Of a stretch of DNA of 64,000 nt, positions 3,075 through 28,987 are shown piece by piece. Position 1 is the stretch's first letter. Every line of letters starts with the position of its first letter. Position numbers and translations under genes: made by a program. The stretch comes from Candidatus Wolfebacteria bacterium (lineage in GTDB: Bacteria; Patescibacteriota; Minisyncoccia; UBA6257; UBA9933): positions 168,959 to 232,958 of the forward strand of contig JANLIR010000002.1 in the NCBI GenBank assembly GCA_024654025.1. The letters run 5' to 3'. The notes under the pieces were generated by a model. That model did no database searches, had not been told where the DNA came from, and saw nothing but the letters and a program-made list of their open reading frames with translations.

Positions 3075-4358
3075 ATGTATAATAATCGCCTAAAAATAGT
3101 TTTGTTCGGAGCCGGAGTTATTGCACTTATTTTAGTTGTTCTAAGTGTTTTTTGCGTAATTCCGATAACAAAAAATTGTTCAAAAACTTCCGTGTCCGGA
3201 AAATTAATTTTTTGGGGAGTTGACGATGTTTCCGCTTATCAAACCGTTATAGATAATTACAGCAAGTTTTATAATAGAAAAGTTCAAATTCAATACCAGC
3301 AAATCCCCGAAGCGGATTTTGAAAATACTTTTGTTCGGGCAGTGGCTAAAAATCAAGGGCCCGATATTTTAATGTTTCATAACTCCTGGCTTATAAAACA
3401 GGGCGATCTTTTAGCTCCGGCCACTGACGCGCAAATTTCTTTAGCAAATATTCGCCAGCTTTTCCCGCAGGTTGTTGAAAAAGATTTTACTTACCAAAGT
3501 AAGGTTTACGCGCTTCCTTTATATCTCGACACTCTCGCGCTTTTTTACAATAAAGATATTTTTAATGCTAACGCCGTTGTTTTTCCGCCGGCAAATTGGA
3601 GTGATTTTACGAATTTAGCAACGAGGCTTACGAAAAAACAAGCTAACGGCCAGATTTTACAATCCGGCGCGGCTATCGGCAGCTCTGATAAAAATATCGT
3701 AAACGCAACTGATGTTTTAAATACGTTAATGCTTCAATACGGTTCTTTAATAGTTGATCCATCTTTTATGCGAACTGATTTTAGCGGTAAAGCAACCAGC
3801 GCTTTTGATTTTTACACCGGCTTTGCCAAGCCAGCTAGCAGTAATTATGTTTGGAACCAAAATTTAGGAAACTCGTTTGATTTATTCAGCCAGGGGCAGG
3901 CGGCGATGATTTTCGGTTATGCTAACCAGATTTCATATCTCAAACAAAAAAATCCGCTTTTGAATTTCGAGGTGGCGTCTATGCCGCAGGCCGATCCTTC
4001 AAATCCTAAAAATTACGCCGCTTATTGGGGCTTGGCAGTTTCTTCTAAAAGCGCGAATTCCGAACTTGCCTGGAGTTTTATAAAATACCTGACAACTGAC
4101 CCGCAAAACTCTCTTACTTATCTTCAAGCGACAAAACGGCCGCCGGCTTTGAAAATTTTAATCAAACAATATCAGAATGATCCGGATTTAAATGTTTTTG
4201 CAAACCAAGCGCTTGCGGCAACTTCATGGTATCAGCCCGACTCTGACCAAACCAGCCAGATTTTTTCAAGCGCGGTCGAATCGGTTTTAAGCGGCCAGCT
4301 TACTTCTGGGCGCGCGCTGGAAAAAGCCGCTTCTCAAATAAATAATTTATTTAAATAA
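3075..4358 (+). CDS. Extracellular solute-binding protein (ABC-transporter family 1 SBP-like), orphan
   Basis: 427 aa with an N-terminal TM/signal anchor; sequence features resemble sugar-type substrate-binding proteins. No permease or ATPase genes adjacent. Confidence 0.5.
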   Translation: MYNNRLKIVLFGAGVIALILVVLSVFCVIPITKNCSKTSVSGKLIFWGVDDVSAYQTVIDNYSKFYNRKVQIQYQQIPEADFENTFVRAVAKNQGPDILMFHNSWLIKQGDLLAPATDAQISLANIRQLFPQVVEKDFTYQSKVYALPLYLDTLALFYNKDIFNANAVVFPPANWSDFTNLATRLTKKQANGQILQSGAAIGSSDKNIVNATDVLNTLMLQYGSLIVDPSFMRTDFSGKATSAFDFYTGFAKPASSNYVWNQNLGNSFDLFSQGQAAMIFGYANQISYLKQKNPLLNFEVASMPQADPSNPKNYAAYWGLAVSSKSANSELAWSFIKYLTTDPQNSLTYLQATKRPPALKILIKQYQNDPDLNVFANQALAATSWYQPDSDQTSQIFSSAVESVLSGQLTSGRALEKAASQINNLFK

Positions 4359-4363
4359 AATTT

Positions 4364-4702
4364 ATGAATATCGCATACGCTGCTCTAACTCCTTTAGTCC
4401 AATGCGGTCCCGGAACAGCCAAGCTCGAGTGCACTATTTGTGATCTATTTCAATTGGCTCAAAATATTTATAATTTTGTTATTGTTTTTGCGTTTGTTTT
4501 GGCTTTAGGAGCTTTGGTTTGGGCGGGGTTTAAAATAATGACTTCTGCCGGCGATCCGGGAAAATATAAAGACGCGGTTGGAAAAATCAGGACGATTTTA
4601 ATCGGCATAGCCATTCTGCTTTTAGCCGGGTTTGTGGTTGATTTAGTTTTGAAAGTCCTTGTCGGCGGCAGCTTGGGTCCGTGGAATAAATTGCCTTGCT
4701 AA
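4364..4702 (+). CDS. Type IV secretion pilin-like (TrbC/VirB2-like) small membrane protein, paralog 1
   Basis: 112 aa; two hydrophobic helices separated by a Gly/Asp/Lys-rich loop (…GFKIMTSAGDPGKYKDAVGKIRTILIGIAILLLAGF…), the pattern of CPR T4SS-pilin (PF18895-like) proteins. Confidence 0.4.
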   Translation: MNIAYAALTPLVQCGPGTAKLECTICDLFQLAQNIYNFVIVFAFVLALGALVWAGFKIMTSAGDPGKYKDAVGKIRTILIGIAILLLAGFVVDLVLKVLVGGSLGPWNKLPC

Positions 4703-4732
4703 AAAACCAAAAAAAATTTATTATAAATATTA

Positions 4733-5152
4733 ATGAAATCGCTTTTGTTTAAAATTTCTATAGTATCAGCGATAATTTTCGCGGTTTTTACCACGAGTAT
4801 TTTTGTAGAAAAAGTTTTGGCAGTGTCCGGTGGAGGGGTTAATACAGCGGCGCCGGGCGGCGGAGTTGATTCTGTTGGCGGCGGTAACGGACAGCTTTTT
4901 AATTATTTCGGATCCGGTTCGACTCTTGACAGTGTCCTTTCCAAAATAATCGATTATTTTATCGGTGTTTCGGTTTCAGTGGCTGTGATAATAGTTATCT
5001 ATGGAGCGTGGAAAATGATGACCGCGACAGGCGATCCTAAAAAATTCCAAGAAGGCCAAAAAACAGTTTTGTACGCCGCTATCGGGTTGTTGGTAATTTT
5101 ACTCGCAAGAGGGATTATCGGCGCGTTGTATGGGATAATACAAACGTTATAA
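4733..5152 (+). CDS. Type IV secretion pilin-like small membrane protein, paralog 2
   Basis: 139 aa; same architecture (…GAWKMMTATGDPKKFQEGQKTVLYAAIGLLVILLARG…) with a Gly-rich low-complexity insert (GGGVNTAAPGGGVDSVGGGNG). Confidence 0.4.
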   Translation: MKSLLFKISIVSAIIFAVFTTSIFVEKVLAVSGGGVNTAAPGGGVDSVGGGNGQLFNYFGSGSTLDSVLSKIIDYFIGVSVSVAVIIVIYGAWKMMTATGDPKKFQEGQKTVLYAAIGLLVILLARGIIGALYGIIQTL

Positions 5153-5192
5153 TAAATATAAAGAAAAAGGTCGAGAATGAGAAATCAAAAAA

Positions 5193-5558
5193 ATGAAAAA
5201 AGTTTTACAAAAAATTATTTATTCAGGAGCGATTTTATCGCTCGTATTGCCGGTATTTTCGTTTGCCGCGATATTTACTCCGCCAGGCCAGGGGCAACCT
5301 GGAAATATTCCTATAACCGGCCTCTCTAATGTGTATGACACGCTAGATACGGTAGCTAATTATTTGTTGGGATTATTAATTGCTTTGGCGGTTGTTTTCA
5401 TTGTTTGGGGAGCGTTTCAGTTTTTAACTTCCGGTGGAGATGAAGCAAAAACAAAAGCGGCAAGAAATCATATTCTCTGGGCTCTTGTAGCTGTCGCGGT
5501 TGGGTTACTTGCTAAAGGGCTAGTTGCCGCGATAAGAGGAATCGCCGGAAACTTATAA
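5193..5558 (+). CDS. Type IV secretion pilin-like small membrane protein, paralog 3
   Basis: 121 aa; signal peptide plus helix / loop (TSGGDEAKTKAARN) / helix. Followed by a hairpin terminator at 5582-5608. Confidence 0.4.
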   Translation: MKKVLQKIIYSGAILSLVLPVFSFAAIFTPPGQGQPGNIPITGLSNVYDTLDTVANYLLGLLIALAVVFIVWGAFQFLTSGGDEAKTKAARNHILWALVAVAVGLLAKGLVAAIRGIAGNL

Positions 5559-5581
5559 ATTTATTTTCAATGATTCAAAAA

Positions 5582-5608
5582 ATATCCCGAGTGTCGGGAT
5601 ATTTTTTT
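5582..5608 (+). terminator. Rho-independent terminator after the pilin-like triplet
   Basis: ATATCCCGA-GTG-TCGGGATAT hairpin followed by a T7 run. Confidence 0.6.
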
Positions 5609-5728: not shown

Positions 5729-6679
5729 TCAATAAATCTTCAGGAGACCCGGTTGTCCCATGGCCACTTTTATTGGGCCGAGCGGGTTTCCGTTAGTTTT
5801 CCATTTCCAAAAGCCAACCGGTCCCGCTTTCCGTGTTTCGCCGGAGCCCTCGCCAATTATGATCTGGTAAGAGTTTTGGGCGTCAATCGTTATGATTGTC
5901 CCAATGGGCGGGGTCCATGAAGTCACCGCAACGCTCCCGGCCGGAATAAAAACACCATTTCGTCCTTCTTCCGGCGTGACCACGATTTCTTTGAGAACCG
6001 GCGCACTGGGCGCAACCCCCGCTTCCGCGTTAGATGGTTTCATGGTGAGAGTCGTCACGATGCCATTGTCGATTCCCTTTGCTGAGTTCCTTGCGAGCTC
6101 GGCTGTGCGGGGAAGAAACAATGAAATGACGATTGTTATGAAAATCATCGATGCGACAAACGTTATTGCCCTTCCGTTGAAGATGGAAGTGCCTCCGAAA
6201 AGCCGAGTTCCGATAAAGATGATAAAGGCCAAGAGCAGCAGCAACGGGATCAGCTCGGGTCGTTTATCTATCGGAATGATGATAAGCATCAGGGCGAATG
6301 ATAACTCGGCGAATAATACGTGCAGCGTCAGTCGAACATACCGCTCTCCAAACCCCACTGCTGTTCTTCGCCAGATCGCGTCGATTATTAACGCAATCGG
6401 CGCGGCCAGTAAAGAAAGCAAGATCGTGAAGAACGCCCAAACAAGTCCCGCAACCGAAATCCACATCGAGAATCCGAAAATTCCCAGAAGCAGGATTGGT
6501 ATGGGCAGAAGCATCATTACGATTGCGAGCCGCGAAAGCCCGACCCGATATACTTCAAAATCGGTTCTGTTATCGCCCCCAACAAGGGCAATGACCTCGG
6601 CGGCGTCCGCCGCGCCGGTGATGATTGTGTCGAGAATGAGCCGCAGCGTTAAGAGTATTTCACGAAGTGTTTCACGCAT
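5729..6679 (-). CDS. Hypothetical multi-pass membrane protein with a C-terminal extracytoplasmic domain, in a GC-rich islet
   Basis: The tracked ORF is 5729..6784. The likely true start is the ATG at 6679 (MRETLREIL…), preceded by AAAGGAGG and overlapping the upstream stop (ATGCGTGA). About 5 TM helices, then a ~130-aa Gly/Pro/Thr-rich soluble tail. Local GC is roughly 55% against a ~38% background. Confidence 0.5.
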   Translation of the reverse strand: MRETLREILLTLRLILDTIITGAADAAEVIALVGGDNRTDFEVYRVGLSRLAIVMMLLPIPILLLGIFGFSMWISVAGLVWAFFTILLSLLAAPIALIIDAIWRRTAVGFGERYVRLTLHVLFAELSFALMLIIIPIDKRPELIPLLLLLAFIIFIGTRLFGGTSIFNGRAITFVASMIFITIVISLFLPRTAELARNSAKGIDNGIVTTLTMKPSNAEAGVAPSAPVLKEIVVTPEEGRNGVFIPAGSVAVTSWTPPIGTIITIDAQNSYQIIIGEGSGETRKAGPVGFWKWKTNGNPLGPIKVAMGQPGLLKIY

Positions 6680-7373
6680 GAGGAGCCTCCTTTCGATATT
6701 TGGCAGTCTTCCGGCCGCGTGCTGTGCGGCGGTTATTGAGCCATTCAGCCCAACGGTCGTTGAGGGGTTGAAGTTCTGAACCAATTACTCCAAATACTTC
6801 GTTGAGACGGATCCCAAACATTCTTAGCCACTGCATGACGATGTCGTGGTTGAGAAACTCGATTGCGCTGTCGAATTCTTGCGGAGGAAGTTCGCCGAGC
6901 CAGACGAAGAAGTTGATGGTATCTTCATCGGTCGTTTCCTTCCCTTCCTCGGATTCTTTAAGTATTAAAACCTTTCCGAGACAATCCACAAGAAGATTCT
7001 CTTCGCCAGGCCGGTAATTTCCTTCGTCAGAATAAAGCCGGGGCCGACAAAACTGCCGATCTTCCTGCCTCTTTCTGATGGTTTTTGCCGCGACTTTCTT
7101 CTTTTCATCTTCGGAAGATTCCATCTTCTGTAAAAAAACGAGAAGCTTGGCGCGGTAATGGTCACTCATCTTCGCCTGCACTTTTTTAGCCGTTTCTACG
7201 GCTGCCTTGCTCCCGACTTCGCGAATGACCTCGGCGGCAGCGGTTCTTGACCCCATCTTCATAAGCCCCCAGGCTTTTCTGAGGAGTTCAAAAACAGCAA
7301 TACCCCCTGCCGTTATCCCGAGTTCCTTTCCGACTTCGCCAGCGCTGAAATCAGCTTTCTTTTCCTCTGCCAT
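6672..7373 (-). CDS. Hypothetical protein (GC-rich islet), translationally coupled to the downstream membrane-protein gene
   Basis: 233 aa, Lys/Glu-rich, no recognisable motif. Shares the high GC of its neighbour. The antisense ORF 5892..6779 is a GC-driven shadow. Confidence 0.45.
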   Translation of the reverse strand: MAEEKKADFSAGEVGKELGITAGGIAVFELLRKAWGLMKMGSRTAAAEVIREVGSKAAVETAKKVQAKMSDHYRAKLLVFLQKMESSEDEKKKVAAKTIRKRQEDRQFCRPRLYSDEGNYRPGEENLLVDCLGKVLILKESEEGKETTDEDTINFFVWLGELPPQEFDSAIEFLNHDIVMQWLRMFGIRLNEVFGVIGSELQPLNDRWAEWLNNRRTARGRKTAKYRKEAPHA

Positions 7374-7564
7374 GGTCGGCGTCCTCCTTTCAGGATTTAG
7401 ATAGTTTCACTACGGGGTTGACGTAAACTATTTATAAGAGCAAATTTTGGAATAGTTGCCTACCCCAAAATACTTTGATATAATACAATAAAATTATTTA
7501 AAAGTCAACTAATGATTTTGTTAAAAAATAACAGCTAATAATGTATAATTTATTTGTTTAATAT

Positions 7565-7649
7565 GTCCTCGTGGCGGAAATGGAATACGCGCAGCGCTTA
7601 GGACGCTGTCCCGCAAGGGTTGTGGGTTCGACTCCCACCGAGGACACCA
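7565..7649 (+). tRNA. tRNA-Leu (anticodon TAG), class II with long variable arm; CCA encoded
   Basis: Acceptor GTCCTCG/CGAGGAC; anticodon arm CAGCG-CTTAGGA-CGCTG; variable stem CCC-GCAA-GGG; T-arm GTGGG-TTCGACT-CCCAC; ACCA at the 3' end. Preceded by a TATAAT -10 element at about 7543. Confidence 0.8.
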
Positions 7650-7650
7650 A

Positions 7651-7686
7651 ACTATAAATCCCTTCGAGACCGAAGGGATTTATAGT
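7651..7686 (+). terminator. Perfect 16-bp hairpin immediately 3' of tRNA-Leu
   Basis: ACTATAAATCCCTTCG-AGAC-CGAAGGGATTTATAGT. No clean U-tract, so it may be a processing or structure element. Confidence 0.45.
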
Positions 7687-7809
7687 TTATATATCACAAG
7701 GGAGGAGAAGGGTATTTAAAAAAGCAAACTGCTTTGCTTTTTTAAAACCCCGGCTCTGGAGGAGTAATTTTCCATGTTTATTTATGAACGAAAAATTACG
7801 GGGGAAGAG

Positions 7810-7827
7810 GACTCCCACCGAGGACAC
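7810..7827 (+). repeat. 18-bp direct repeat of the tRNA-Leu 3' end (candidate att-site remnant)
   Basis: GACTCCCACCGAGGACAC at 7810-7827 is identical to the last 18 nt of the tRNA body (7630-7647). It lies 4 bp from the stop of the tyrosine recombinase gene. Confidence 0.6.
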
Positions 7828-7831
7828 AAAA

Positions 7832-8827
7832 TTATCCCCTTCTTCTTCCGTGAAATGTTTTGTGTATTTCTTTGAGTTCTTTATTTGTTAAATGCGTGTA
7901 AATTTGGGTTGTGGAAATATTGCTATGGCCTAAAAGTTCTTGCACAGACCTTAAATCCGCTCCTCCGATTAATAAATCAGTGGCAAAGCTATGCCGGAGC
8001 AAATGCGGGTGGATTTTTTGCGGTATCCCCGCTTTTCGGCCGTAAAAATCTATCAAGCGCTGAATTGCGCGAGGAATAATTCTCCCGATAACTTTCGGAT
8101 TTGCTTGCCCTGAGCTCATCGAGTCTGAGACTCTCAGAGTCGAATGACTTGTCGAACGGGTTGCTTTAGTTAAGCTTACAAACAGCGCTTCTTCGGCATC
8201 GGTTCGTTTTCCTAAATAATTTTTTATAGCTTTCTTGGCGGATTCGGATAAAAACACCACTCTTATTTTCCCGCCCTTGCCCCGCACGGAAATTTCTCCC
8301 CTATTCAAATCAAAATACCGGCTCAAAGAACATAATTCTGAAACGCGAAGCCCGGTTGAAAACAAAACTTCCAAAATCGCTTTGTCGCGAAGTCCTTTTA
8401 AATCGTTTGTTTTGGGCGCTGCCATAAGCCGTTCCAAATCCGAGTATTCCATTATATTGATTTGCCGGTTTGGAATTCTAGGAAGCTCGATTTTTTCCGA
8501 AGCTAAAACCCTGTAGTCGTTTTTCGCCAAAAATTTCAAAAAGTTTCTAAGCGCTATTATGTAGTAGCTTTGGGTTGTGCGTTTAAAGTTTTCTCCATCT
8601 CTGGGATTATGAAGCCGCGCCAGATAGATCCGAAAATCTCTTACGTTGTCAGCGGTGATATCGCCCTCGGATTTTATTTTGGCGAAATCAAAAAACTTCG
8701 TTAAATAGTGCTCATAATTTTCCCGCGTGTCTTTAGTCCTGCCTTTTTCAATCTCAAGATAATCAAGATAGTTTTTGAGGAGTTTGTTTATGTCAGCCAT
8801 AGCTTCGCAACCTGTAACTTGTAACAA
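7832..8827 (-). CDS. Tyrosine site-specific recombinase (XerC/XerD / phage-integrase family)
   Basis: 331 aa. N-terminal SAM-like core-binding domain; catalytic motifs LFSTGLRVSEL, HPHLLRHSFATDLL, LGHSNISTTQIYTH (R…HxxR…Y). About 25-aa insertion relative to canonical XerD before the HxxR box. Confidence 0.85.
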   Translation of the reverse strand: MLQVTGCEAMADINKLLKNYLDYLEIEKGRTKDTRENYEHYLTKFFDFAKIKSEGDITADNVRDFRIYLARLHNPRDGENFKRTTQSYYIIALRNFLKFLAKNDYRVLASEKIELPRIPNRQINIMEYSDLERLMAAPKTNDLKGLRDKAILEVLFSTGLRVSELCSLSRYFDLNRGEISVRGKGGKIRVVFLSESAKKAIKNYLGKRTDAEEALFVSLTKATRSTSHSTLRVSDSMSSGQANPKVIGRIIPRAIQRLIDFYGRKAGIPQKIHPHLLRHSFATDLLIGGADLRSVQELLGHSNISTTQIYTHLTNKELKEIHKTFHGRRRG

Positions 8828-9798: not shown

Positions 9799-11910
9799 AT
9801 GCTTGAATCCAAAGAATTTTCAATTGATTTTCAAGGGAAACCCTTGAGCTTAAAAGTTTCCAAAATTGCCGAGCAAGCCAACTCGGCTGTTTTAGGCCAG
9901 TACGGCGATACCGTGGTTCTAGTAACCGCCACGATGGGCGAAAAAGACCGCGATACGGATTATTTTCCTTTGGTAGTTGATTACGAAGAAAAATTTTATG
10001 CCGCCGGAAAAATTATCGGCAGCCGGTTTATTCGGCGCGAAGGCCGGCCTTCGGAAGAAGCTATTCTTTCCGGAAGAATGATTGACCGGGCGCTTCGGCC
10101 CTTTTTTAATTCACGGATGAGAAGAGATGTTCAAATTGTAATCACTATCCTTTCTTACGACGAAGAAAACGATCCGGATTTTATTTCGCTTCTCTCCGCT
10201 TCAACCGCCTTGGCAATTTCCGATATTCCGTGGAATGGCCCTGTTGCCGGAGTAAGATTGGCAAAAATGAAAGGCGGAAATTTAATGATTAATCCGACCA
10301 AGACGGAAATTAGCGGCAGTGAATTTTTATTCGAATCTTTTGTCGCCGGAAATGAAAGTAAAATAAATATGATAGAACTGGCGGCAAACGAAGTTTCCGA
10401 AAAAGAAGTTATTAGTTCATTTGAAACAGCCCAGGAAGAAATAAAAAAATTGATAAAATTCCAAAAAGAAATTATTCCCAAAATCAGCAAACCAAAAGCC
10501 GAAGTGCTTCTTGTTGAGCCGGATCCGAATTTAAAGCATAAAGTTCAGGAATTTTTAAAAAATAAATTAGAAAACGCAGTTTATGTTTCCGATAAAGCCC
10601 AGCAGCGCCATATTTTGCGAAAGTTAAAAGAAGATTTGAAAGAGCATTTGGTTTCTGAGGGGCTAATTCCGGAAGGAATTGATGCTATTGTAGAGGAAGA
10701 AATCGACGCGCTTATCCATAAAAATATTTTGGAAAAAGATATGAGGCCGGACTCTCGAAAACTCGATGAGGTCAGAGCGCTTTTCGGCCAAGTCGGTTTA
10801 TTTAAACGGCTTCACGGTTCCGCCTTGTTTTTTAGGGGTAGTACTCAATCGTTGGCAGTTACAACTTTAGCCGCTCCCGGACAGGAGCAAATGATAGAAA
10901 CAATGGAAGTTTCAGGGAAACGCAGATTTATGCTCCATTACAATTTTCCGCCTTATTCGGTTGGAGAAATAGGCAGACTGGGCGGACCGGGACGCCGAGA
11001 AGTCGGCCACGGCGCTTTGGCGGAAAAAGCCATAAGGTCAATAATCCCCTCAAAAGAGGAATTCCCTTATACTATCCGTGTTGTTTCAGAGATTTTGTCT
11101 TCAAACGGGTCATCTTCTATGGCAACTGTCTGCTCGTCGGTATTATCGCTAATGGATGCAGGTGTTCCTATTAAAAAGCCGGTGGCAGGCATTGCTATGG
11201 GAATTATTATGGGACAAGCGACAAGCGACAAGCGACAAGATTACAAAGTGCTGACCGATATTCAAGGCCCGGAAGATCACTACGGCGATATGGATTGTAA
11301 AGTTGCAGGCACAACCGACGGAATTACCGCCATACAAATGGACGTGAAAATTGACGGCGTTACCACCGAAATTTTAAATGACGTGTTAGTTCAAGCCAAA
11401 AAAGCCCGCCTTGAGATTTTGGAAGTTATGAAATCCGTTATTGATAAGCCTAGGGAAAAACTTTCAGAGTTCGCGCCAATTATTTTGACAATCAACATTA
11501 GTCCGGAAAGAATCGGCGAAGTTATCGGCCCGGGCGGAAAAATGATTAATATGATAATTAAAGACACCGGCGTTACGACAATAGATATCGAACAAACCGG
11601 AAAAGTTTTTGTTTCCGCCACTACTCCCGAACAAGCCCAAGCGGCGATTGGGTTCATCCAATCCTTAACAAAAGAATTCGAGGTCGGCGAAATTATTGAA
11701 GGCAAGATTATCAAACTTTTGGAATTTGGAGCCATTGTCGATTTGGGAGGCGGCAATGACGGAATGATTCACATTTCAGAAGTAAAAAGCGGATTTGTAA
11801 AAGATATTAATGAAGTTCTTAAATTGGGCGATGTTGTGAGGGCAAAAATTATAAAAGTTGAAAACGGAAAAATCGGACTTTCGATAAAAGCCTTGGCGGA
11901 ACAAAAATAG
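9799..11910 (+). CDS. pnp: Polynucleotide phosphorylase
   Basis: 703 aa. Two RNase PH domains, a KH domain (GEVIGPGGKMINMI) and a C-terminal S1 domain (GEIIEGKIIKLLEFGAIVDL). Confidence 0.9.
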   Translation: MLESKEFSIDFQGKPLSLKVSKIAEQANSAVLGQYGDTVVLVTATMGEKDRDTDYFPLVVDYEEKFYAAGKIIGSRFIRREGRPSEEAILSGRMIDRALRPFFNSRMRRDVQIVITILSYDEENDPDFISLLSASTALAISDIPWNGPVAGVRLAKMKGGNLMINPTKTEISGSEFLFESFVAGNESKINMIELAANEVSEKEVISSFETAQEEIKKLIKFQKEIIPKISKPKAEVLLVEPDPNLKHKVQEFLKNKLENAVYVSDKAQQRHILRKLKEDLKEHLVSEGLIPEGIDAIVEEEIDALIHKNILEKDMRPDSRKLDEVRALFGQVGLFKRLHGSALFFRGSTQSLAVTTLAAPGQEQMIETMEVSGKRRFMLHYNFPPYSVGEIGRLGGPGRREVGHGALAEKAIRSIIPSKEEFPYTIRVVSEILSSNGSSSMATVCSSVLSLMDAGVPIKKPVAGIAMGIIMGQATSDKRQDYKVLTDIQGPEDHYGDMDCKVAGTTDGITAIQMDVKIDGVTTEILNDVLVQAKKARLEILEVMKSVIDKPREKLSEFAPIILTINISPERIGEVIGPGGKMINMIIKDTGVTTIDIEQTGKVFVSATTPEQAQAAIGFIQSLTKEFEVGEIIEGKIIKLLEFGAIVDLGGGNDGMIHISEVKSGFVKDINEVLKLGDVVRAKIIKVENGKIGLSIKALAEQK

Positions 11911-19394: not shown

Positions 19395-20333
19395 CTACTT
19401 CAAAGTCGTAATCGGCCTGCTTTGGACAATATAAAATTTATTTTTTTCAAAAGCCCATTCAATGTCCTGCGGTTTTTTATAATGATTTTCTATATTTTGG
19501 CATATTTGTGCCAACTGTAAAATATATTTGTCGGCCAGTTTTTGTTTTTCTTGCTTGGCTTTCGGCACGATAGTTTCTTTAACTCCGCTTCCGTCTCGCA
19601 CAACCATCATTTCCTGCTTTGAAATGTTTGAGTCCAAAATATTTCTGTTTGTTTTGTGAATTACGTAAGTGTCAGGAGTGATTTTGCCCCCGACAATCGC
19701 TTCGCCCAATCCATACCCGGCCTCAATTACCATCTGGTCATAATCTTCGGTTACTGGGTGTACCGTAAAACAGATTCCGGAAATTTCCGATTGAATCATT
19801 TTCTGCACCACAACTGCCACTAAAACTTTTTGCTTATGAAGTTTTTTTTCAAACCGATAAAAAATCGCGCGTGGAGTAAATAGCGATGCCCAGCATTTTT
19901 TAACATTTTCCAAAAGATTTCCCTTTGAAGTATTTAAATAACTTTCCAATTCTCCGGCCCAGGAAGCGGTAGAAGAGTCCTCGGCTGTGGCTGAACTACG
20001 TACTGCCACATATTTTGTTTTCAGCTTGGCGAATTCAGTTAAAATTTCTTTGGCGATATCTTTGGGAAATTTAGCGTTTAAAATTAAGCTCCTGATTTCT
20101 TCAGAGACCTTTTCAATGGAGTTTATATCTTTGACTTTTACTTTGTGGAGCTGGGCTTCTATCTCAACGTCAATATCGGTTTCTTCCAAAAACCTATCAA
20201 AAGCCCCAGCCAAAACCACAAATCCGGGCGGCACCGGAATTCCGGATTTTATCATTTCGCCAAGCGAAGCTCCCTTGCCTCCGGCAATAGCAGCGTCTTT
20301 TTTTGAAAGTTTGTTAATTTTTTTAATAAACAT
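19395..20333 (-). CDS. PEP-utilising enzyme N-terminal ATP/nucleotide-binding domain protein (PPDK_N-like; PEP synthase / rifampin-phosphotransferase ATP-grasp module), stand-alone
   Basis: 312 aa. GGKGASLGEM and VAVRSSATAEDSSTASWAGELESYLN match the PEP synthase / PPDK N-terminal domain. No swivel or PEP-binding domain in the same ORF. Confidence 0.75.
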   Translation of the reverse strand: MFIKKINKLSKKDAAIAGGKGASLGEMIKSGIPVPPGFVVLAGAFDRFLEETDIDVEIEAQLHKVKVKDINSIEKVSEEIRSLILNAKFPKDIAKEILTEFAKLKTKYVAVRSSATAEDSSTASWAGELESYLNTSKGNLLENVKKCWASLFTPRAIFYRFEKKLHKQKVLVAVVVQKMIQSEISGICFTVHPVTEDYDQMVIEAGYGLGEAIVGGKITPDTYVIHKTNRNILDSNISKQEMMVVRDGSGVKETIVPKAKQEKQKLADKYILQLAQICQNIENHYKKPQDIEWAFEKNKFYIVQSRPITTLK

Positions 20334-20366
20334 AATCTACATTTTAACAGCCCAAACCGCTTATAT

Positions 20367-21965
20367 CTACCTTCCCAAATGCAAAACTTTTCTATGATGA
20401 GGATTTGATGTTTTTTGGGCTTGAACCGGAATTATCTTAAAATTATTTTTTGATTTTTTTATCACCGTCACCTTCCCGGAATTTGCGTCAACCTCAACCA
20501 GGTCGCCGTCTTTTAATGATTTTGTAGCTGTCTTTGCTCCGATAATGCATGGTGTTTTAAGTTCTCGAGCCACAATCGCCGCATGGCACAATAAACCTCC
20601 CTCATCGGTGACAACGGCGGAAGCTTTTTTTATTAAAGGCACAAAATCCGGCGTTGTCATAGAAGTAACTAAAACGTCTCCCTCTTCAAATTTTCCTTTT
20701 TCTGACCTTGGGTCAAAAATAATTTTAGCTTTTCCTTTGACCCTTCCTTTATATGCAGTAAACCCTTTTAGTATTTGATTTTTTGAGGTTTCTATCTTCT
20801 CGTGCCAGTCTTCTTTTTTGACGCCGGTCCATACTTTAATCGCGTTTCCGACTTGTTTTATGGTGGCTCCTTTTAATATTCTTTCTCTGACTATTTTTTT
20901 TGGATTATTTTTTCCCAAAAGACCCTCAATAATTTCTTTTTTGGAAAGAAGCCAAAAATCGTCCGCTTCTTCCAATTTCAATCTGTCTATAATTTCAAGG
21001 TAAAAATCCCAGCAGTGCACGAAGTAGTTATAATAATTTTCTTCATCGCAGTTGCGGTAGCCCATCATTTTTCTGAGCCAGAAAATATGTTTTGTTATTT
21101 TGGAATGTTTTTTTAGTTCGGATAAAATTTTCCCCACTATTTTTCGGCTCTTTTCTTCTTCATTATTTATTTTTCTTATTTCGGCTTCGGCATCGGTTTT
21201 TAAGTGTTTCAAAAACCGTTTGTCAATGTCCCCAAGCTTGTAATAATTGCCGTCGTGTTTAAAACTGCATCCGCCGAATTTATACCAATGGCCGAAAATA
21301 ATTTTTTTAATCTTTTTGTCCCGCCAGTTTTTTGAAGTCCTGTATATTTTTTGTATCTTAATTAATTTTTTCAAAAAATTCAGCCGCTCGGTCTTAACCA
21401 TTGAATTTATGCCCACAGATGAAAGAGTTTGCAGAATTTTTCCAACATCTTTTATTTTCAGCTCAGAAGAAAATTTGTCCAATTCTTTTTTGACTAGGCG
21501 GGGAAGAAGATTAACCAAGTCGTAGACGACGTAATAGCCGGCCAGCGCCCGGCGGTGATAATAACCGTGCTTTTCCAATATTTTTACCAGATCGCCGTTT
21601 GTCCTGCTTTTGTAAAAACCGGCACCTTTGGTAAATATTTGATCGGTTATTTTTTTAAAATCCGCGTAAGATTTGAAAAAATATTTTTCCAGCCTGCTGA
21701 AATAATTTTTATCTTTCAGTAAATCGCCGGCGACTCCTTCCAGAAATTCGTCTTCAATTTTACTGTCCCAATAAATAAAAAATTCCCTGGGATTGCCCGA
21801 TCTGGTAGAAACGTATTTAACCCAATTGCCGTAATTTCTTTTATAAGGATCTCCTTTCCAATTTAAAATAGTTACTTTTAAAGTTTCTTCTTCAGAAAGA
21901 ATATCCAGTACTCTGACCATTTTTTCAATGTTATCCGGATTGGAAAAGGGTTTATACCTGCTCAT
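20367..21965 (-). CDS. Uncharacterised ~420-aa domain fused to a C-terminal PEP-utilising-enzyme mobile (phospho-histidine swivel) domain
   Basis: 532 aa. The C-terminal ~100 aa (…VTDEGGLLCHAAIVARELKTPCIIGAKTATKSLKDGDLVEVDANSGKV) is a canonical PEP-utilisers swivel domain with the catalytic His. The N-terminal part is Lys/Tyr-rich with no recognisable motif. Start overlaps the upstream gene by 4 nt. Confidence 0.7.
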   Translation of the reverse strand: MSRYKPFSNPDNIEKMVRVLDILSEEETLKVTILNWKGDPYKRNYGNWVKYVSTRSGNPREFFIYWDSKIEDEFLEGVAGDLLKDKNYFSRLEKYFFKSYADFKKITDQIFTKGAGFYKSRTNGDLVKILEKHGYYHRRALAGYYVVYDLVNLLPRLVKKELDKFSSELKIKDVGKILQTLSSVGINSMVKTERLNFLKKLIKIQKIYRTSKNWRDKKIKKIIFGHWYKFGGCSFKHDGNYYKLGDIDKRFLKHLKTDAEAEIRKINNEEEKSRKIVGKILSELKKHSKITKHIFWLRKMMGYRNCDEENYYNYFVHCWDFYLEIIDRLKLEEADDFWLLSKKEIIEGLLGKNNPKKIVRERILKGATIKQVGNAIKVWTGVKKEDWHEKIETSKNQILKGFTAYKGRVKGKAKIIFDPRSEKGKFEEGDVLVTSMTTPDFVPLIKKASAVVTDEGGLLCHAAIVARELKTPCIIGAKTATKSLKDGDLVEVDANSGKVTVIKKSKNNFKIIPVQAQKTSNPHHRKVLHLGR

Positions 21966-26660: not shown

Positions 26661-27524
26661 TTACGGGATTTTAAAAATTTTTATATTTTCTCCGTTTGCC
26701 TCAATTTTTATCAACCCGTCTTTATCGGTTCTGAAAATTTTAGATTCAACAGAGGCAAGCCGGTTTAAAATTTCTTTTGTCGGATGGCCGTAAGAATTTT
26801 TCCCCACCTCTATTATTGAGATTTTTGGATCAACAGCTTTTAAAAATTCTTCACTGGTTGAAAATTTCGATCCGTGATGGCCGACTTTTAAAATATCAAC
26901 GCTAAGATCGTATTTTCCAAGTAAGTGATTTTCGGTTTTAAAACCGATATCGCCGGTAAAAAGAATTTTAACCATCCGGCTTTCTAAAATTGAAACCAGC
27001 GCCGTTTCGTTTAATGTTTTAGTTGTTTTGGGCAAATTATTTTTTTCCGGCCAGATGAAATTCATGCGGTTGTTCAAATATTTTATTTTGTCTCCGGCCG
27101 ACAAGACAATTATCGGAACATTATTATTTTTTAAAATTTTCAAAAGTTCTGGCCAAGTATTTCCTCTGCCGTTCAGGCCGTTGAAAATAAACGCGCCTAT
27201 CCGGTATCTTTTAGCGACGTCAATTAAGCCGGTGAAATGATCGGCTTCGGCATGGGACAAAATAATCAGATCAATATAGTGATCGGTTGATGGTAAAGAT
27301 TTTGAAAGTTCCGTTAATATTTTTGAGTTCGGTCCGCCGTCCATCAAAATTTTTACATTGCCCGGAAGCACAACCAATTCGCTGTCGCCCTGGCCGACAT
27401 TTAAAAAATACGCTTGAAGATTTTTATGTCCGCCGTCAAATATTATCGAGTTCCAGATAAAAAAGTCAAAAATTATTAAAGCAGAGATGAAAATTTTTAT
27501 CTTGAAGTTCATATTGAAGTTCAT
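26661..27524 (-). CDS. ComEC C-terminal metallo-beta-lactamase-fold domain, encoded as a separate ORF
   Basis: 287 aa. MBL motifs (…LNVGQGDSELV…, ILSHAEADHFTG, GDIGF, VGHHGS). The first 8 codons (MNFNMNFK) come from a 12-nt tandem duplication (27501-27524). 4-nt overlap with the membrane part. Confidence 0.7.
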   Translation of the reverse strand: MNFNMNFKIKIFISALIIFDFFIWNSIIFDGGHKNLQAYFLNVGQGDSELVVLPGNVKILMDGGPNSKILTELSKSLPSTDHYIDLIILSHAEADHFTGLIDVAKRYRIGAFIFNGLNGRGNTWPELLKILKNNNVPIIVLSAGDKIKYLNNRMNFIWPEKNNLPKTTKTLNETALVSILESRMVKILFTGDIGFKTENHLLGKYDLSVDILKVGHHGSKFSTSEEFLKAVDPKISIIEVGKNSYGHPTKEILNRLASVESKIFRTDKDGLIKIEANGENIKIFKIP

Positions 27525-28987
27525 ATTGCGAAATTATGCCGAGGTTGATTAAGCCGGCGCTGAACTTTTCTTTTAATATAGACGACGAATAAAATTAAAA
27601 GAGTGTAATAAATGATTATTCCTAGCGCGCCAAAAGAGATTTTTAAAGGCACTGCGATTTTCCCAAAAAAATTTATTATTGCCAGTTCGTAATACAAAAA
27701 TAAATGAAGGAACCAGCCTAAAATTTGCGACAGAGAATAAGAAAAAAACCCGATAAATCCGGTAAAAAATCCGACGCCCATCGTAAAAGGAATAAGCCAT
27801 AATATTAAAACATTCGCCAATATCGAAAGAAGAGAAAATTTTCCAAAAGAAGAAATAAGAATTGGCAAAACCGCCAGCTGGGCCGAAGCGGTTGATATTA
27901 AAATTTCTTTCCACTGGGCAATTTCTTTTCCCAGTTTCAAAAAATCTTTAATCGCCGGAGAAAGATAAGCAATTCCCATTAAAGCCAAAAAAGAAAGTTG
28001 GAACCCAATATCAAAAGCCAAAATTTTCGGGTTTTGTAAAATCATCAAAAAAGCGGAAACGCTCATCGCGTTTCGAAACGAATAAATCCGGCCGATTTGT
28101 TTTCCTAAAAGCGCAACCGAACCCATAATCGCGGCTCTCGCGACCGAAGCTTCGGCGCCGGTCATCAGCACAAACCCCAAAATAATTATCAGCGTCATTG
28201 CAAAAGCGATGTTTTTTCTAAAATAGAACGCGAATAAAAAAGCGGCCGTGGAAACTATAACGGTTATGTTGTATCCCGAAAGCGCCACAATGTGCGTTGT
28301 CCCGGAATTACTCATCGCATCTTTTAAATTTTTGGAAAATTCCGACCGTTCTCCTAATGTTAGTCCCGAAGCCAAAGCCGCTTCTTCTTGAGGTAAAATT
28401 TTTTGGAGCGCTAAAACAAATTTTTCTTTAAATGAAAACAAGACGGATTTTATTTTCGATCCTTGGTTCGTCTTTATTAAACTCGTTTTCGGATAAACGG
28501 AAACAGCCGATATTTCGTTTTTAGCCAAATAGTTCGCGTAAGAGCCCTCCGGTTTTTTAATTATTCCTTCGAAATTTAATTTATCGCCATAATTGAACTC
28601 AGGATAGGGTTTTAAAGTTATTAAAATTTTTCCTTTATAGGGCGCTTGCAGGGCAACCGCAATTTTTTGGCTCGCCCCTCTTTGCGGATAGTCGCTGACA
28701 ATGCCTAAAAAACTTATTTTCTTGTCAAAGGGAGCGAAAAAACCTTTTTGCATTTGGAAATTTACCCAAAAATAATACAAAGCTCCGGCAACGATAATCA
28801 AAGAAAGAAACGAAAGTTTTTTGAAATCAATTTTCGGTTTTAGATGAAAATAATGAAGCGTCAAAATTAAAGCCGCCAACAAAGCGGTTATAAGAATAAT
28901 TATTAAAAATTTTAAATTCAAACTGGCAAGTAAAACTCCAACGAGAAAAAAGAATATGGAATAAAAAGCGATGTCGTGGATTCTCAT
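27521..28987 (-). CDS. comEC: ComEC/Rec2 DNA-uptake channel, membrane (DUF4131 plus competence) portion
   Basis: 488 aa polytopic. Competence-domain signature …SNSGTTHIVALSGYNITVIV…. Confidence 0.8.
   Translation of the reverse strand: MRIHDIAFYSIFFFLVGVLLASLNLKFLIIILITALLAALILTLHYFHLKPKIDFKKLSFLSLIIVAGALYYFWVNFQMQKGFFAPFDKKISFLGIVSDYPQRGASQKIAVALQAPYKGKILITLKPYPEFNYGDKLNFEGIIKKPEGSYANYLAKNEISAVSVYPKTSLIKTNQGSKIKSVLFSFKEKFVLALQKILPQEEAALASGLTLGERSEFSKNLKDAMSNSGTTHIVALSGYNITVIVSTAAFLFAFYFRKNIAFAMTLIIILGFVLMTGAEASVARAAIMGSVALLGKQIGRIYSFRNAMSVSAFLMILQNPKILAFDIGFQLSFLALMGIAYLSPAIKDFLKLGKEIAQWKEILISTASAQLAVLPILISSFGKFSLLSILANVLILWLIPFTMGVGFFTGFIGFFSYSLSQILGWFLHLFLYYELAIINFFGKIAVPLKISFGALGIIIYYTLLILFVVYIKRKVQRRLNQPRHNFAI

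Follow-up and report, generated by a model that had tools for sequence, protein, structure and literature searches.

Among the oddities of the type IV secretion systems (T4SSs) of Patescibacteria is the presence of VirB2-like pilins in a monoderm lineage. A patescibacterial T4SS is essential for epibiotic growth in the one species tested, and the array of six pilin genes inside the T4SS locus of Southlakia epibionticum is essential (Wang et al., 2023; PMC10633639). In Paceibacteria that parasitize methanogens, T4SS pilins are among the top-expressed genes for secreted proteins (mBio, 2024). Screening 3,035 Patescibacteria genomes with PF18895, PF04956 and other profiles, Quinonero-Coronel et al. 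(2025; PMC12102498) found VirB4 in 2,417 of the 3,035 assemblies and VirB2-like pilins in 1,948 VirB4-containing assemblies, in just 1,135 of which the pilin gene is close to virB4. They defined an array as two or more highly divergent pilin genes, either in tandem or with one non-pilin gene between them, and counted 441 such arrays, which hold 2-11 pilin genes each and average 25% identity among their members. The arrays were most abundant in Microgenomatia and Saccharimonadia, and the authors speculated that they adapt to different host strains. Here we describe a triplet of PF18895 pilin genes (positions 4364-5558) in a 64 kb stretch of DNA from a Candidatus Wolfebacteria bacterium (contig JANLIR010000002.1; hereafter the window), together with the gene for a MalE-like extracellular solute-binding protein (SBP) that leads it. 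While the triplet is an ordinary instance of this recently described kind of array, the SBP-led operon architecture is a fresh point and a modestly interesting lead.

Three divergent pilins in tandem

An initial annotation, made from the sequence alone, had listed three tandem open reading frames (ORFs) of 112, 139 and 121 amino acids (aa), and their coordinates and sizes proved exact, all on the + strand. With spacers of 30 nucleotides (nt) between pilins 1 and 2 and 40 nt between pilins 2 and 3, and with pairwise identities of 21-31%, they match the array definition of Quinonero-Coronel et al. (2025) and deserve their description as highly diverged paralogs. In the hidden Markov model (HMM) search that had been suggested as a check, all three exceed the gathering score of PF18895 (37.2, 38.8 and 43.3 bits against 26.6; E-values 3e-9 to 4e-11), the matches to this T4SS_pilin model spanning positions 3-71 of 71; significant pilin-family matches, whose lack had been named as fatal to the idea, are thus present for every member. 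Likewise, 46 of 47 pilin homologues carry a precomputed Pfam PF18895 annotation. A family HMM, built from 50 family members and run on the 670 six-frame ORFs of the window, picked only the three ORFs of the triplet, the next best having an E-value of 0.19. The triplet of T4SS-type pilins is real and far beyond chance.

The likeness to TrbC/VirB2 proposed by the annotation holds at the level of the T4SS-pilin family PF18895, but not for PF04956 (TrbC/VirB2) proper. Against the latter, pilin 1 (24.0 bits, E 5e-5) and pilin 2 (21.9 bits, E 2e-4) fall short of the 27.9-bit gathering score and pilin 3 has no match at all; a precomputed PF04956 annotation is present in some close orthologues. The best NCBIfam match of all three is NF045849, with 29.0, 35.6 and 29.7 bits below the cutoff of 40 (E 6e-7 to 6e-9). 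By hydropathy, each pilin consists of two transmembrane (TM) helices flanking a K/R-rich loop, which agrees with the helix, charged loop, helix design that had been described. While the TM pairs are thus found in all three, signal-peptide-like segments are found in pilins 2 and 3 but not in pilin 1. In the loops of pilins 2 and 3, K and R exceed or equal D and E, and the loop motif TSxGD(P/E)xK is conserved.

Pilin 1 (4364-4702, + strand, 112 aa), which is preceded by an in-frame stop at 4352-4354, is the Cys-containing member. Its N-terminal tail of 37 aa holds three Cys and is followed by TM helices at residues 38-56 and 78-96, the basic loop KIMTSAGDPGKYKDAVGKIRT with five K/R against two D/E, and the C-terminus PWNKLPC. 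An AlphaFold2 model of moderate confidence (mean predicted local distance difference test, pLDDT, 66) shows a helical hairpin formed by residues 25-60 and 65-100. The three N-terminal Cys and the C-terminal Cys are conserved, and the distant members P0024 and P0040 of the pilin 1 subtype, which carry full signal peptides, show the same pattern (LVQCGxG..C..CDL ... PWxxxxC). This conservation suggests external disulfides that possibly tie both ends of the protein together, an arrangement that may, by analogy, be functionally reminiscent of cyclised TrbC/VirB2.

Pilin 2 (4733-5152, + strand, 139 aa) is composed of a signal-peptide-like segment that ends between VLA and V, a variable linker at aa 27-53 (window 4811-4891) and a nearly invariant two-helix core at aa 54-139. 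What had been noted as a poly-Gly insert in one paralog is rather a Gly-rich stretch of pilin 2 with three GGG runs (VSGGGVNTAAPGGGVDSVGGGNG). The linker is of low complexity, rich in Gly, Ser, Thr and Pro, and wholly different between close relatives (L003, L004 and L006); it could act as a propeptide or be glycosylated. Pilin 3 (5193-5558, + strand, 121 aa), which has the strongest family-model score of the three, combines a signal peptide ending between SFA and A with two TM helices and the loop QFLTSGGDEAKTK. Pilin 1 contains four Cys and pilins 2 and 3 none, which fits the Cys-rich-first order of the SBP-led arrays described below.

Gene order around the triplet is kept in five related contigs (L003-L007) as gyrA, SBP, pilins 1 to 3, two opposite-strand genes, an integrase, S15, NYN and PNPase. 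Ratios of nonsynonymous to synonymous substitution rates (dN/dS; Nei-Gojobori) were calculated against these syntenic relatives at dS of about 0.3-0.9. Orthologues of pilin 1 are 86-96% identical (dN/dS 0.03-0.12) and those of pilin 3 84-98% (0.05-0.12). In pilin 2 (0.19-0.24), the core at aa 54-139 is 92-99% identical among orthologues and aa 1-53, the signal peptide and Gly-rich linker, just 37-59%, with lineage-specific short peptide repeats such as APGTYNS x2 and SGGQPT x2 in the variable part. For reference, gyrA gave values of 0.07-0.09 and the SBP gene 0.08-0.12. The divergence of the paralogs had been taken as a sign of diversifying selection, with dN/dS as the proposed check, and here the initial annotation was mistaken, each pilin being conserved in the five syntenic relatives. 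The three paralogs diverged long ago, are specialised and are under purifying selection; we regard them as old and not currently diversifying because their orthologues are conserved and dN/dS is 0.03-0.24. A DIVERSIFYING reading of the triplet was rejected on the same conserved synteny and dN/dS values. Variability is confined to the Gly-rich leader and linker of pilin 2.

L004 and L005 seem to have lost pilin copies, but this is due to N-runs in the assembly of these two Joint Genome Institute (JGI) contigs (L004:10940-11726; L005:10558-10581 and 10869-10975), which also explain the fragmentary pilin ORFs there.

A solute-binding protein gene at the head of the arrays

Absent from the initial annotation is the gene that heads the SBP-pilin operon (3075-4358, + strand, 427 aa), which is the array's most conserved partner. 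It encodes a MalE-like extracellular SBP of the SBP_bac_1 family (Pfam PF01547, 107.4 bits against 26), with a TM anchor at residues 8-26 and no lipobox, and its nearest solved structures are maltose- and maltodextrin-binding proteins (E about 1e-17). Only 5 nt separate its stop codon from the ATG of pilin 1. Its neighbours in the window are gyrA and the pilins, with no adjacent gene for an ABC permease or ATPase.

The pairing extends well beyond the close relatives. The distant homologue P0036 belongs to a three-pilin array that is likewise preceded by an SBP gene, whose product is 29% identical over its full length to that of the window (E 6e-38). A search of GTDB species genomes with an SBP alignment yielded 55 loci (in the series L011-L066) at 28-88% identity, with record titles that include Wolfe-, Harrison-, Lipton-, Brenner-, Yanofsky-, Uhr-, Komeili- and Kerfeldbacteria among others. 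Where enough downstream sequence was available, a + strand pilin array follows the SBP gene in 40 of 46 loci, mostly immediately. Explicit gene calls gave 32 loci in which pilins come immediately after an SBP ORF. Here a median of 5 nt (range -11 to 177) separates the SBP stop from the start of the first pilin, stop and start codons often overlapping, and the arrays comprise 1-11 genes. The SBP is preceded by GyrA in 12 of the 32, by an NTP_transferase (sugar-nucleotidyl-transferase) in another 12 and by other genes in the rest, and the gene past the array is different nearly everywhere. Because both flanks have changed, we consider the SBP gene and the array a retained unit. Among annotated clusters recurring in at least four of the 55 loci, none encodes an ABC permease or ATPase that could serve the SBP.

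Next after the SBP there is typically a Cys-rich pilin-domain protein (4 to 68 Cys), and later members mostly have 0-2, with some exceptions. This leading protein is also often long, with Ig, fn3, PKD, SLT or PG_binding domains fused to it. Examples of such fusions are L029:3292-5577, L046:2347-5160, L011:7739-8968 and L061:7988-9202; their Ig-like (He_PIG), fn3, PKD, SLT lytic-transglycosylase and PG_binding_1 partners appear adhesin-like or wall-active, with the pilin domain as anchor. Genes for sugar activation and glycosyl transfer recur near the SBP-pilin arrays (L011, L032, L034, L038 and others): NTP_transferase is present in 18 SBP loci, in 12 of them directly upstream of the SBP, DUF2079 in eight, and PMT-type protein O-mannosyltransferases and MptA/GT87 near some arrays. 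The recurring glycosyl-transfer genes hint that the pilins or the SBP are glycosylated.

Two other candidates were rejected. SBP loci without pilins are not canonical ABC operons, four of them forming a separate clade with the order VanW, SBP, a 298-aa protein, GroES and GroEL. The gene that precedes the pilin pair of L009, considered as a divergent SBP, has no similarity to the SBP of the window and bears a C-terminal pilin domain.

In the open-access literature searched, we found no report of an SBP gene tied to pilin arrays. The main text of Quinonero-Coronel et al. (2025) does not mention SBPs or ABC transporters, and in the 2023 Cell and 2024 mBio papers SBP-type terms occur in unrelated contexts only, never tied to pilin arrays.

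Proposed assembly in trans and competing explanations

We posit, at slightly better than even confidence, that the three proteins are specialised VirB2-like subunits that are assembled in trans by a T4SS encoded elsewhere in the genome, with the SBP as their partner. In the cytoplasmic membrane, both termini of each pilin would face outward and the basic loop would face the cytoplasm. Insertion would proceed via cleaved signal peptides for pilins 2 and 3 and in an N-out orientation for pilin 1, whose external tails would be disulfide-bonded. An MPF-FATA-like T4SS (VirB4, VirB3/PrgI, VirB6) encoded elsewhere, of the kind that most Patescibacteria have, often near dnaA, would extract the pilins and polymerise them in trans into a surface filament or channel for host-cell contact. 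Such a contact role, already proposed in the initial annotation, agrees with the current hypothesis in the literature (PMC12102498, PMC12857230 and PMC10936435). The first, Cys-rich pilin would act as a specialised subunit (minor, tip or base) and those without Cys would form the bulk, while the co-transcribed SBP would dock on the structure, aid its assembly, or capture a carbohydrate ligand there.

Support for assembly by a T4SS comes from a complete patescibacterial T4SS locus in which PF18895 pilins lie directly beside the machine. In this locus (L069; GCA_040384045.1, JAWVHH010000471.1), which is Saccharimonadia-like and served as the source of queries, six PF18895 pilins are divergent from a 386-aa ORF, TrbL_3, a 261-aa ORF, a second TrbL_3, PrgI, a TraC-like protein, VirB4, VanY and M23. 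VirB4 is likewise listed for lineages that carry unlinked arrays: of the three array-bearing assemblies that could be cross-checked in Table S1 of PMC12102498, two are positive (Wolfebacteria and Harrisonbacteria), and the same table gives four Wolfebacteria assemblies as VirB4-positive, including that of L027, which has an SBP-pilin array. As a separate observation, the VirB4 of L069 has relatives of at least 67% identity in more than 100 clusters, an unusually strong conservation for a T4SS ATPase.

In the window itself, no homologue of VirB4, VirB6, VirB3 or VirD4 was found, in line with the earlier remark that VirB4- and VirB6-like genes are not nearby, and all ORFs of at least 440 aa have a housekeeping annotation. 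Nine machine-side proteins of L069, compared by phmmer with the window and all fetched loci (1.15 Mb), had no match outside the L069 lineage. VirB4, VirB3/PrgI and VirB6/TrbL are also absent within 10 kb of the array in L003-L007. Metagenome scans gave no match with PrgI toward VirB4, and with a VirB6 alignment two loci, neither with VirB4.

Several points weigh against assembly in trans. In none of the 55 loci is the SBP-led array within 10 kb of a T4SS core gene, which would also fit a T4SS-independent role. With the VirB4 of L069 as query, the best 120 of 8000 matches were all Saccharimonadales-like and none came from the lineage of the window, and a Yanofskybacteria assembly with an SBP-pilin array is listed as VirB4-negative, although it may be incomplete. 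Pilin 1 is without a signal peptide, the conserved start of the mature protein (ALTPLVQCGPGT) having just MNIAYA ahead of it. No significant similarity to solved conjugative pilins emerged: in a profile search VirB2 (8cue) gave E 1.2, and in a Foldseek search of the PDB with the pilin 1 model, the conjugation pilus of A. pernix (8dfu) ranked 14th, with TM-scores of 0.49/0.62 and E 2.3. This search returned zero matches at E of 0.001 or less, the two-helix hairpin being too simple to discriminate, and neither it nor sequence-profile searches found a PF18895 pilus structure in the PDB. A pilus has been seen for no PF18895 protein. Finally, it is synteny that points to a role of the SBP in the pilin system.

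The distance from any T4SS gene could instead mean that the MalE-like SBP and the two-helix proteins form an envelope complex of their own, the name pilin then reflecting shared ancestry only. In such a complex, membrane partners might tether or organise an orphan protein that binds carbohydrates, serving to capture nutrients or recognise host glycans, or the complex might build a VirB4-free filament. It would fit the separation of the SBP-led arrays from T4SS genes by 10 kb or more in all 55 loci, the lack of an ABC permease or ATPase among the recurring annotated clusters, the persistence of the SBP-array pair as both flanks change, the recurrence of NTP_transferase, DUF2079, PMT and GT87 nearby, and the one array-bearing assembly listed as VirB4-negative. 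We nevertheless judge it unlikely, given that PF18895 proteins occur inside bona fide T4SS loci and are essential there, and that about 80% of assemblies have VirB4, as do two of the three checkable assemblies with unlinked arrays. We know of no SBP system that has two-TM hairpin proteins as partners. Still less credence is due to the view that the three ORFs are generic small Sec-dependent membrane proteins or a decaying T4SS remnant, with Pfam matches that arise from hydrophobic composition. The proteins are indeed short and dominated by two TM helices, their comparisons with solved pilins are not significant and pilin 1 has lost its signal peptide; yet all three pass the PF18895 threshold while no other ORF of the window comes close by the family HMM, the loop motif TSxGD(P/E)xK is conserved, purifying selection is strong, with intact ORFs in every relative, and the operon structure is conserved. 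We consider this explanation highly improbable.

A contingency or antigenic-variation array that diversifies to match hosts, as proposed for VirB2 of Bartonella and Anaplasma, would account for the paralog identity of just 21-31% and for the hypervariable leader and linker of pilin 2, with its different short repeats among close relatives, and it would be in keeping with the speculation on host strains in PMC12102498. The pilins nevertheless have one-to-one orthologues at the same position with mature cores of 83-99% identity, their dN/dS is at most about twice that of gyrA, and the order of Cys-rich followed by Cys-free subunits is kept over distant lineages. Inside the array there are no tandem DNA repeats or recombination substrates besides a trivial A-rich 9-mer, and the copy loss in L004 and L005 is the N-run artefact described above. 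For the mature cores this explanation is largely refuted, and as a whole we regard it as very unlikely.

The locus of the window alone adds little to the catalogue of arrays. Its divergent copies are fixed, specialised subunits and not a variation cassette, and it belongs to a large class of PF18895 arrays that travels with a dedicated MalE-like SBP and not with the secretion machine. More tentatively, and with some doubt on our part, the SBP-led PF18895 arrays may be a distinct and ancient module of Patescibacteria. In such a module, an orphan MalE-like SBP would be the obligate partner, structural or functional, of a VirB2-like filament, encoded ahead of a Cys-rich adaptor or tip and then the bulk subunits, away from the T4SS machine and often by sugar or glycosyl genes, and would physically link the recognition or capture of host carbohydrate to the pilus or channel with which auxotrophic epibionts deal with their hosts. 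If the SBP truly is a partner of the pilus, its soluble domain with a probable ligand pocket would offer a tractable handle on what the structure recognises or transports, and an SBP gene followed by a Cys-rich pilin would serve as a genomic marker for the module.

Genomic setting and comparison with known systems

The window derives from a Wolfebacteria-like lineage (Patescibacteria, class Paceibacteria) and the setting of the array is chromosomal. An origin from the candidate phyla radiation (CPR) had been suspected from the sequence and was borne out by database comparison, pilin 2 being 100% identical to NUV83_00890 of a Candidatus Wolfebacteria bacterium metagenome-assembled genome; exact copies of pilin 3 occur in two Hainich groundwater assemblies (0.1-um). 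The 64 kb represent an ordinary CPR chromosome with genes for GyrA, PNPase, a Mur ligase, FtsH, ComEC, ClpB, ParAB, PolX, several tRNA synthetases, RNase J, FtsK and RecA, eight tRNAs and a tmRNA. A consensus scan placed a terminator-like hairpin with a 14-pair stem and a T-rich tail at 5577-5607 (+ strand), 19 nt past the pilin 3 stop codon, where it likely ends the gyrA/SBP-pilin transcription unit; a convergent terminator-like site at 5705-5676 would serve the opposite-strand gene.

Beyond these sites lie two overlapping - strand genes without an assigned family, unkB and unkA (5729-7373), between the pilin array and a tRNA-Leu (7565-7649) with a XerC-like integrase (7832-8827). UnkB has 233 aa and unkA (5729-6679, - strand) about 316 aa from Met36, with a mutual overlap of 8 nt. 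The GC content of 6001-8000 is 0.47 as compared with about 0.40 elsewhere. The pair is kept in L004-L007 and apparently fused into one 514-aa protein in L003, and the C-terminal beta-rich domain of unkA is replaced in L006. Neither gene has any Pfam, NCBIfam or PADLOC match. Considered as a possible VirB6, unkA had no match in Pfam, PADLOC or phmmer searches; its single-sequence AlphaFold2 model (pLDDT 48) was too poor for a structure search. Elsewhere in the window, ComEC is apparently split (26661-28987, - strand) into a 488-aa ORF with Competence and DUF4131 domains and a separate, overlapping 287-aa ORF with a metallo-beta-lactamase domain. At 19395-21965 (- strand), a phosphoenolpyruvate (PEP)-utilising enzyme is encoded by two adjacent ORFs whose order is unusual: the mobile PEP-utilizers domain comes first, in an ORF of 532 aa, and a 312-aa PPDK_N ORF second.

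With the VirB2-like arrays described for Patescibacteria, the window array shares the phylum, the PF18895 family, the tandem arrangement of small pilins and their low mutual identity. It differs in its position, since the arrays of S. epibionticum and L069 are inside a T4SS locus while that of the window is, on one side, at least 58 kb from any T4SS gene. In contrast to both, it also follows a MalE-like SBP gene that heads its operon. Its lineage, Wolfebacteria, belongs to the Paceibacteria, whereas array abundance peaks in Microgenomatia and Saccharimonadia (PMC12102498).

The VirB2, TrbC and TraA pilins of diderm T4SSs (PF04956; 8cue) resemble those of the window in having a leader, two hydrophobic helices, a short positive loop and about 70-90 mature residues. 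The window host, in contrast, is taken as monoderm from the literature and its TrbC scores are sub-threshold. No VirB5, TraF-type cyclase, TraQ or TraX is found near the window array, and pilin 1 has external Cys in place of a cleaved leader. The VirB2 paralogs of Bartonella and Anaplasma (cited in PMC12102498) are likewise several divergent copies in tandem, but they lie within virB operons and are read as antigenic or host-range variation, whereas the window array is under purifying selection and unlinked to the machine. A small two-helix protein of a monoderm, MPF-FATA-type system is known from Mycoplasma integrative and conjugative elements (the pilin-like conjugal transfer protein Mbov_0395 / MMCAP2_0565; NF045849); compared with it, the window pilins score 29-35.6 bits, below 40, and are not surrounded by a relaxase, coupling protein or VirB4. 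The window SBP, for its part, resembles the MalE/SBP_bac_1 binding proteins of ABC transporters in its full-length SBP_bac_1 domain, with maltose- and maltodextrin-binding structures as the nearest. In place of the permease and ATPase of such transporters, however, its conserved downstream partners, as judged from the annotated clusters of the 55 loci, are pilin genes.

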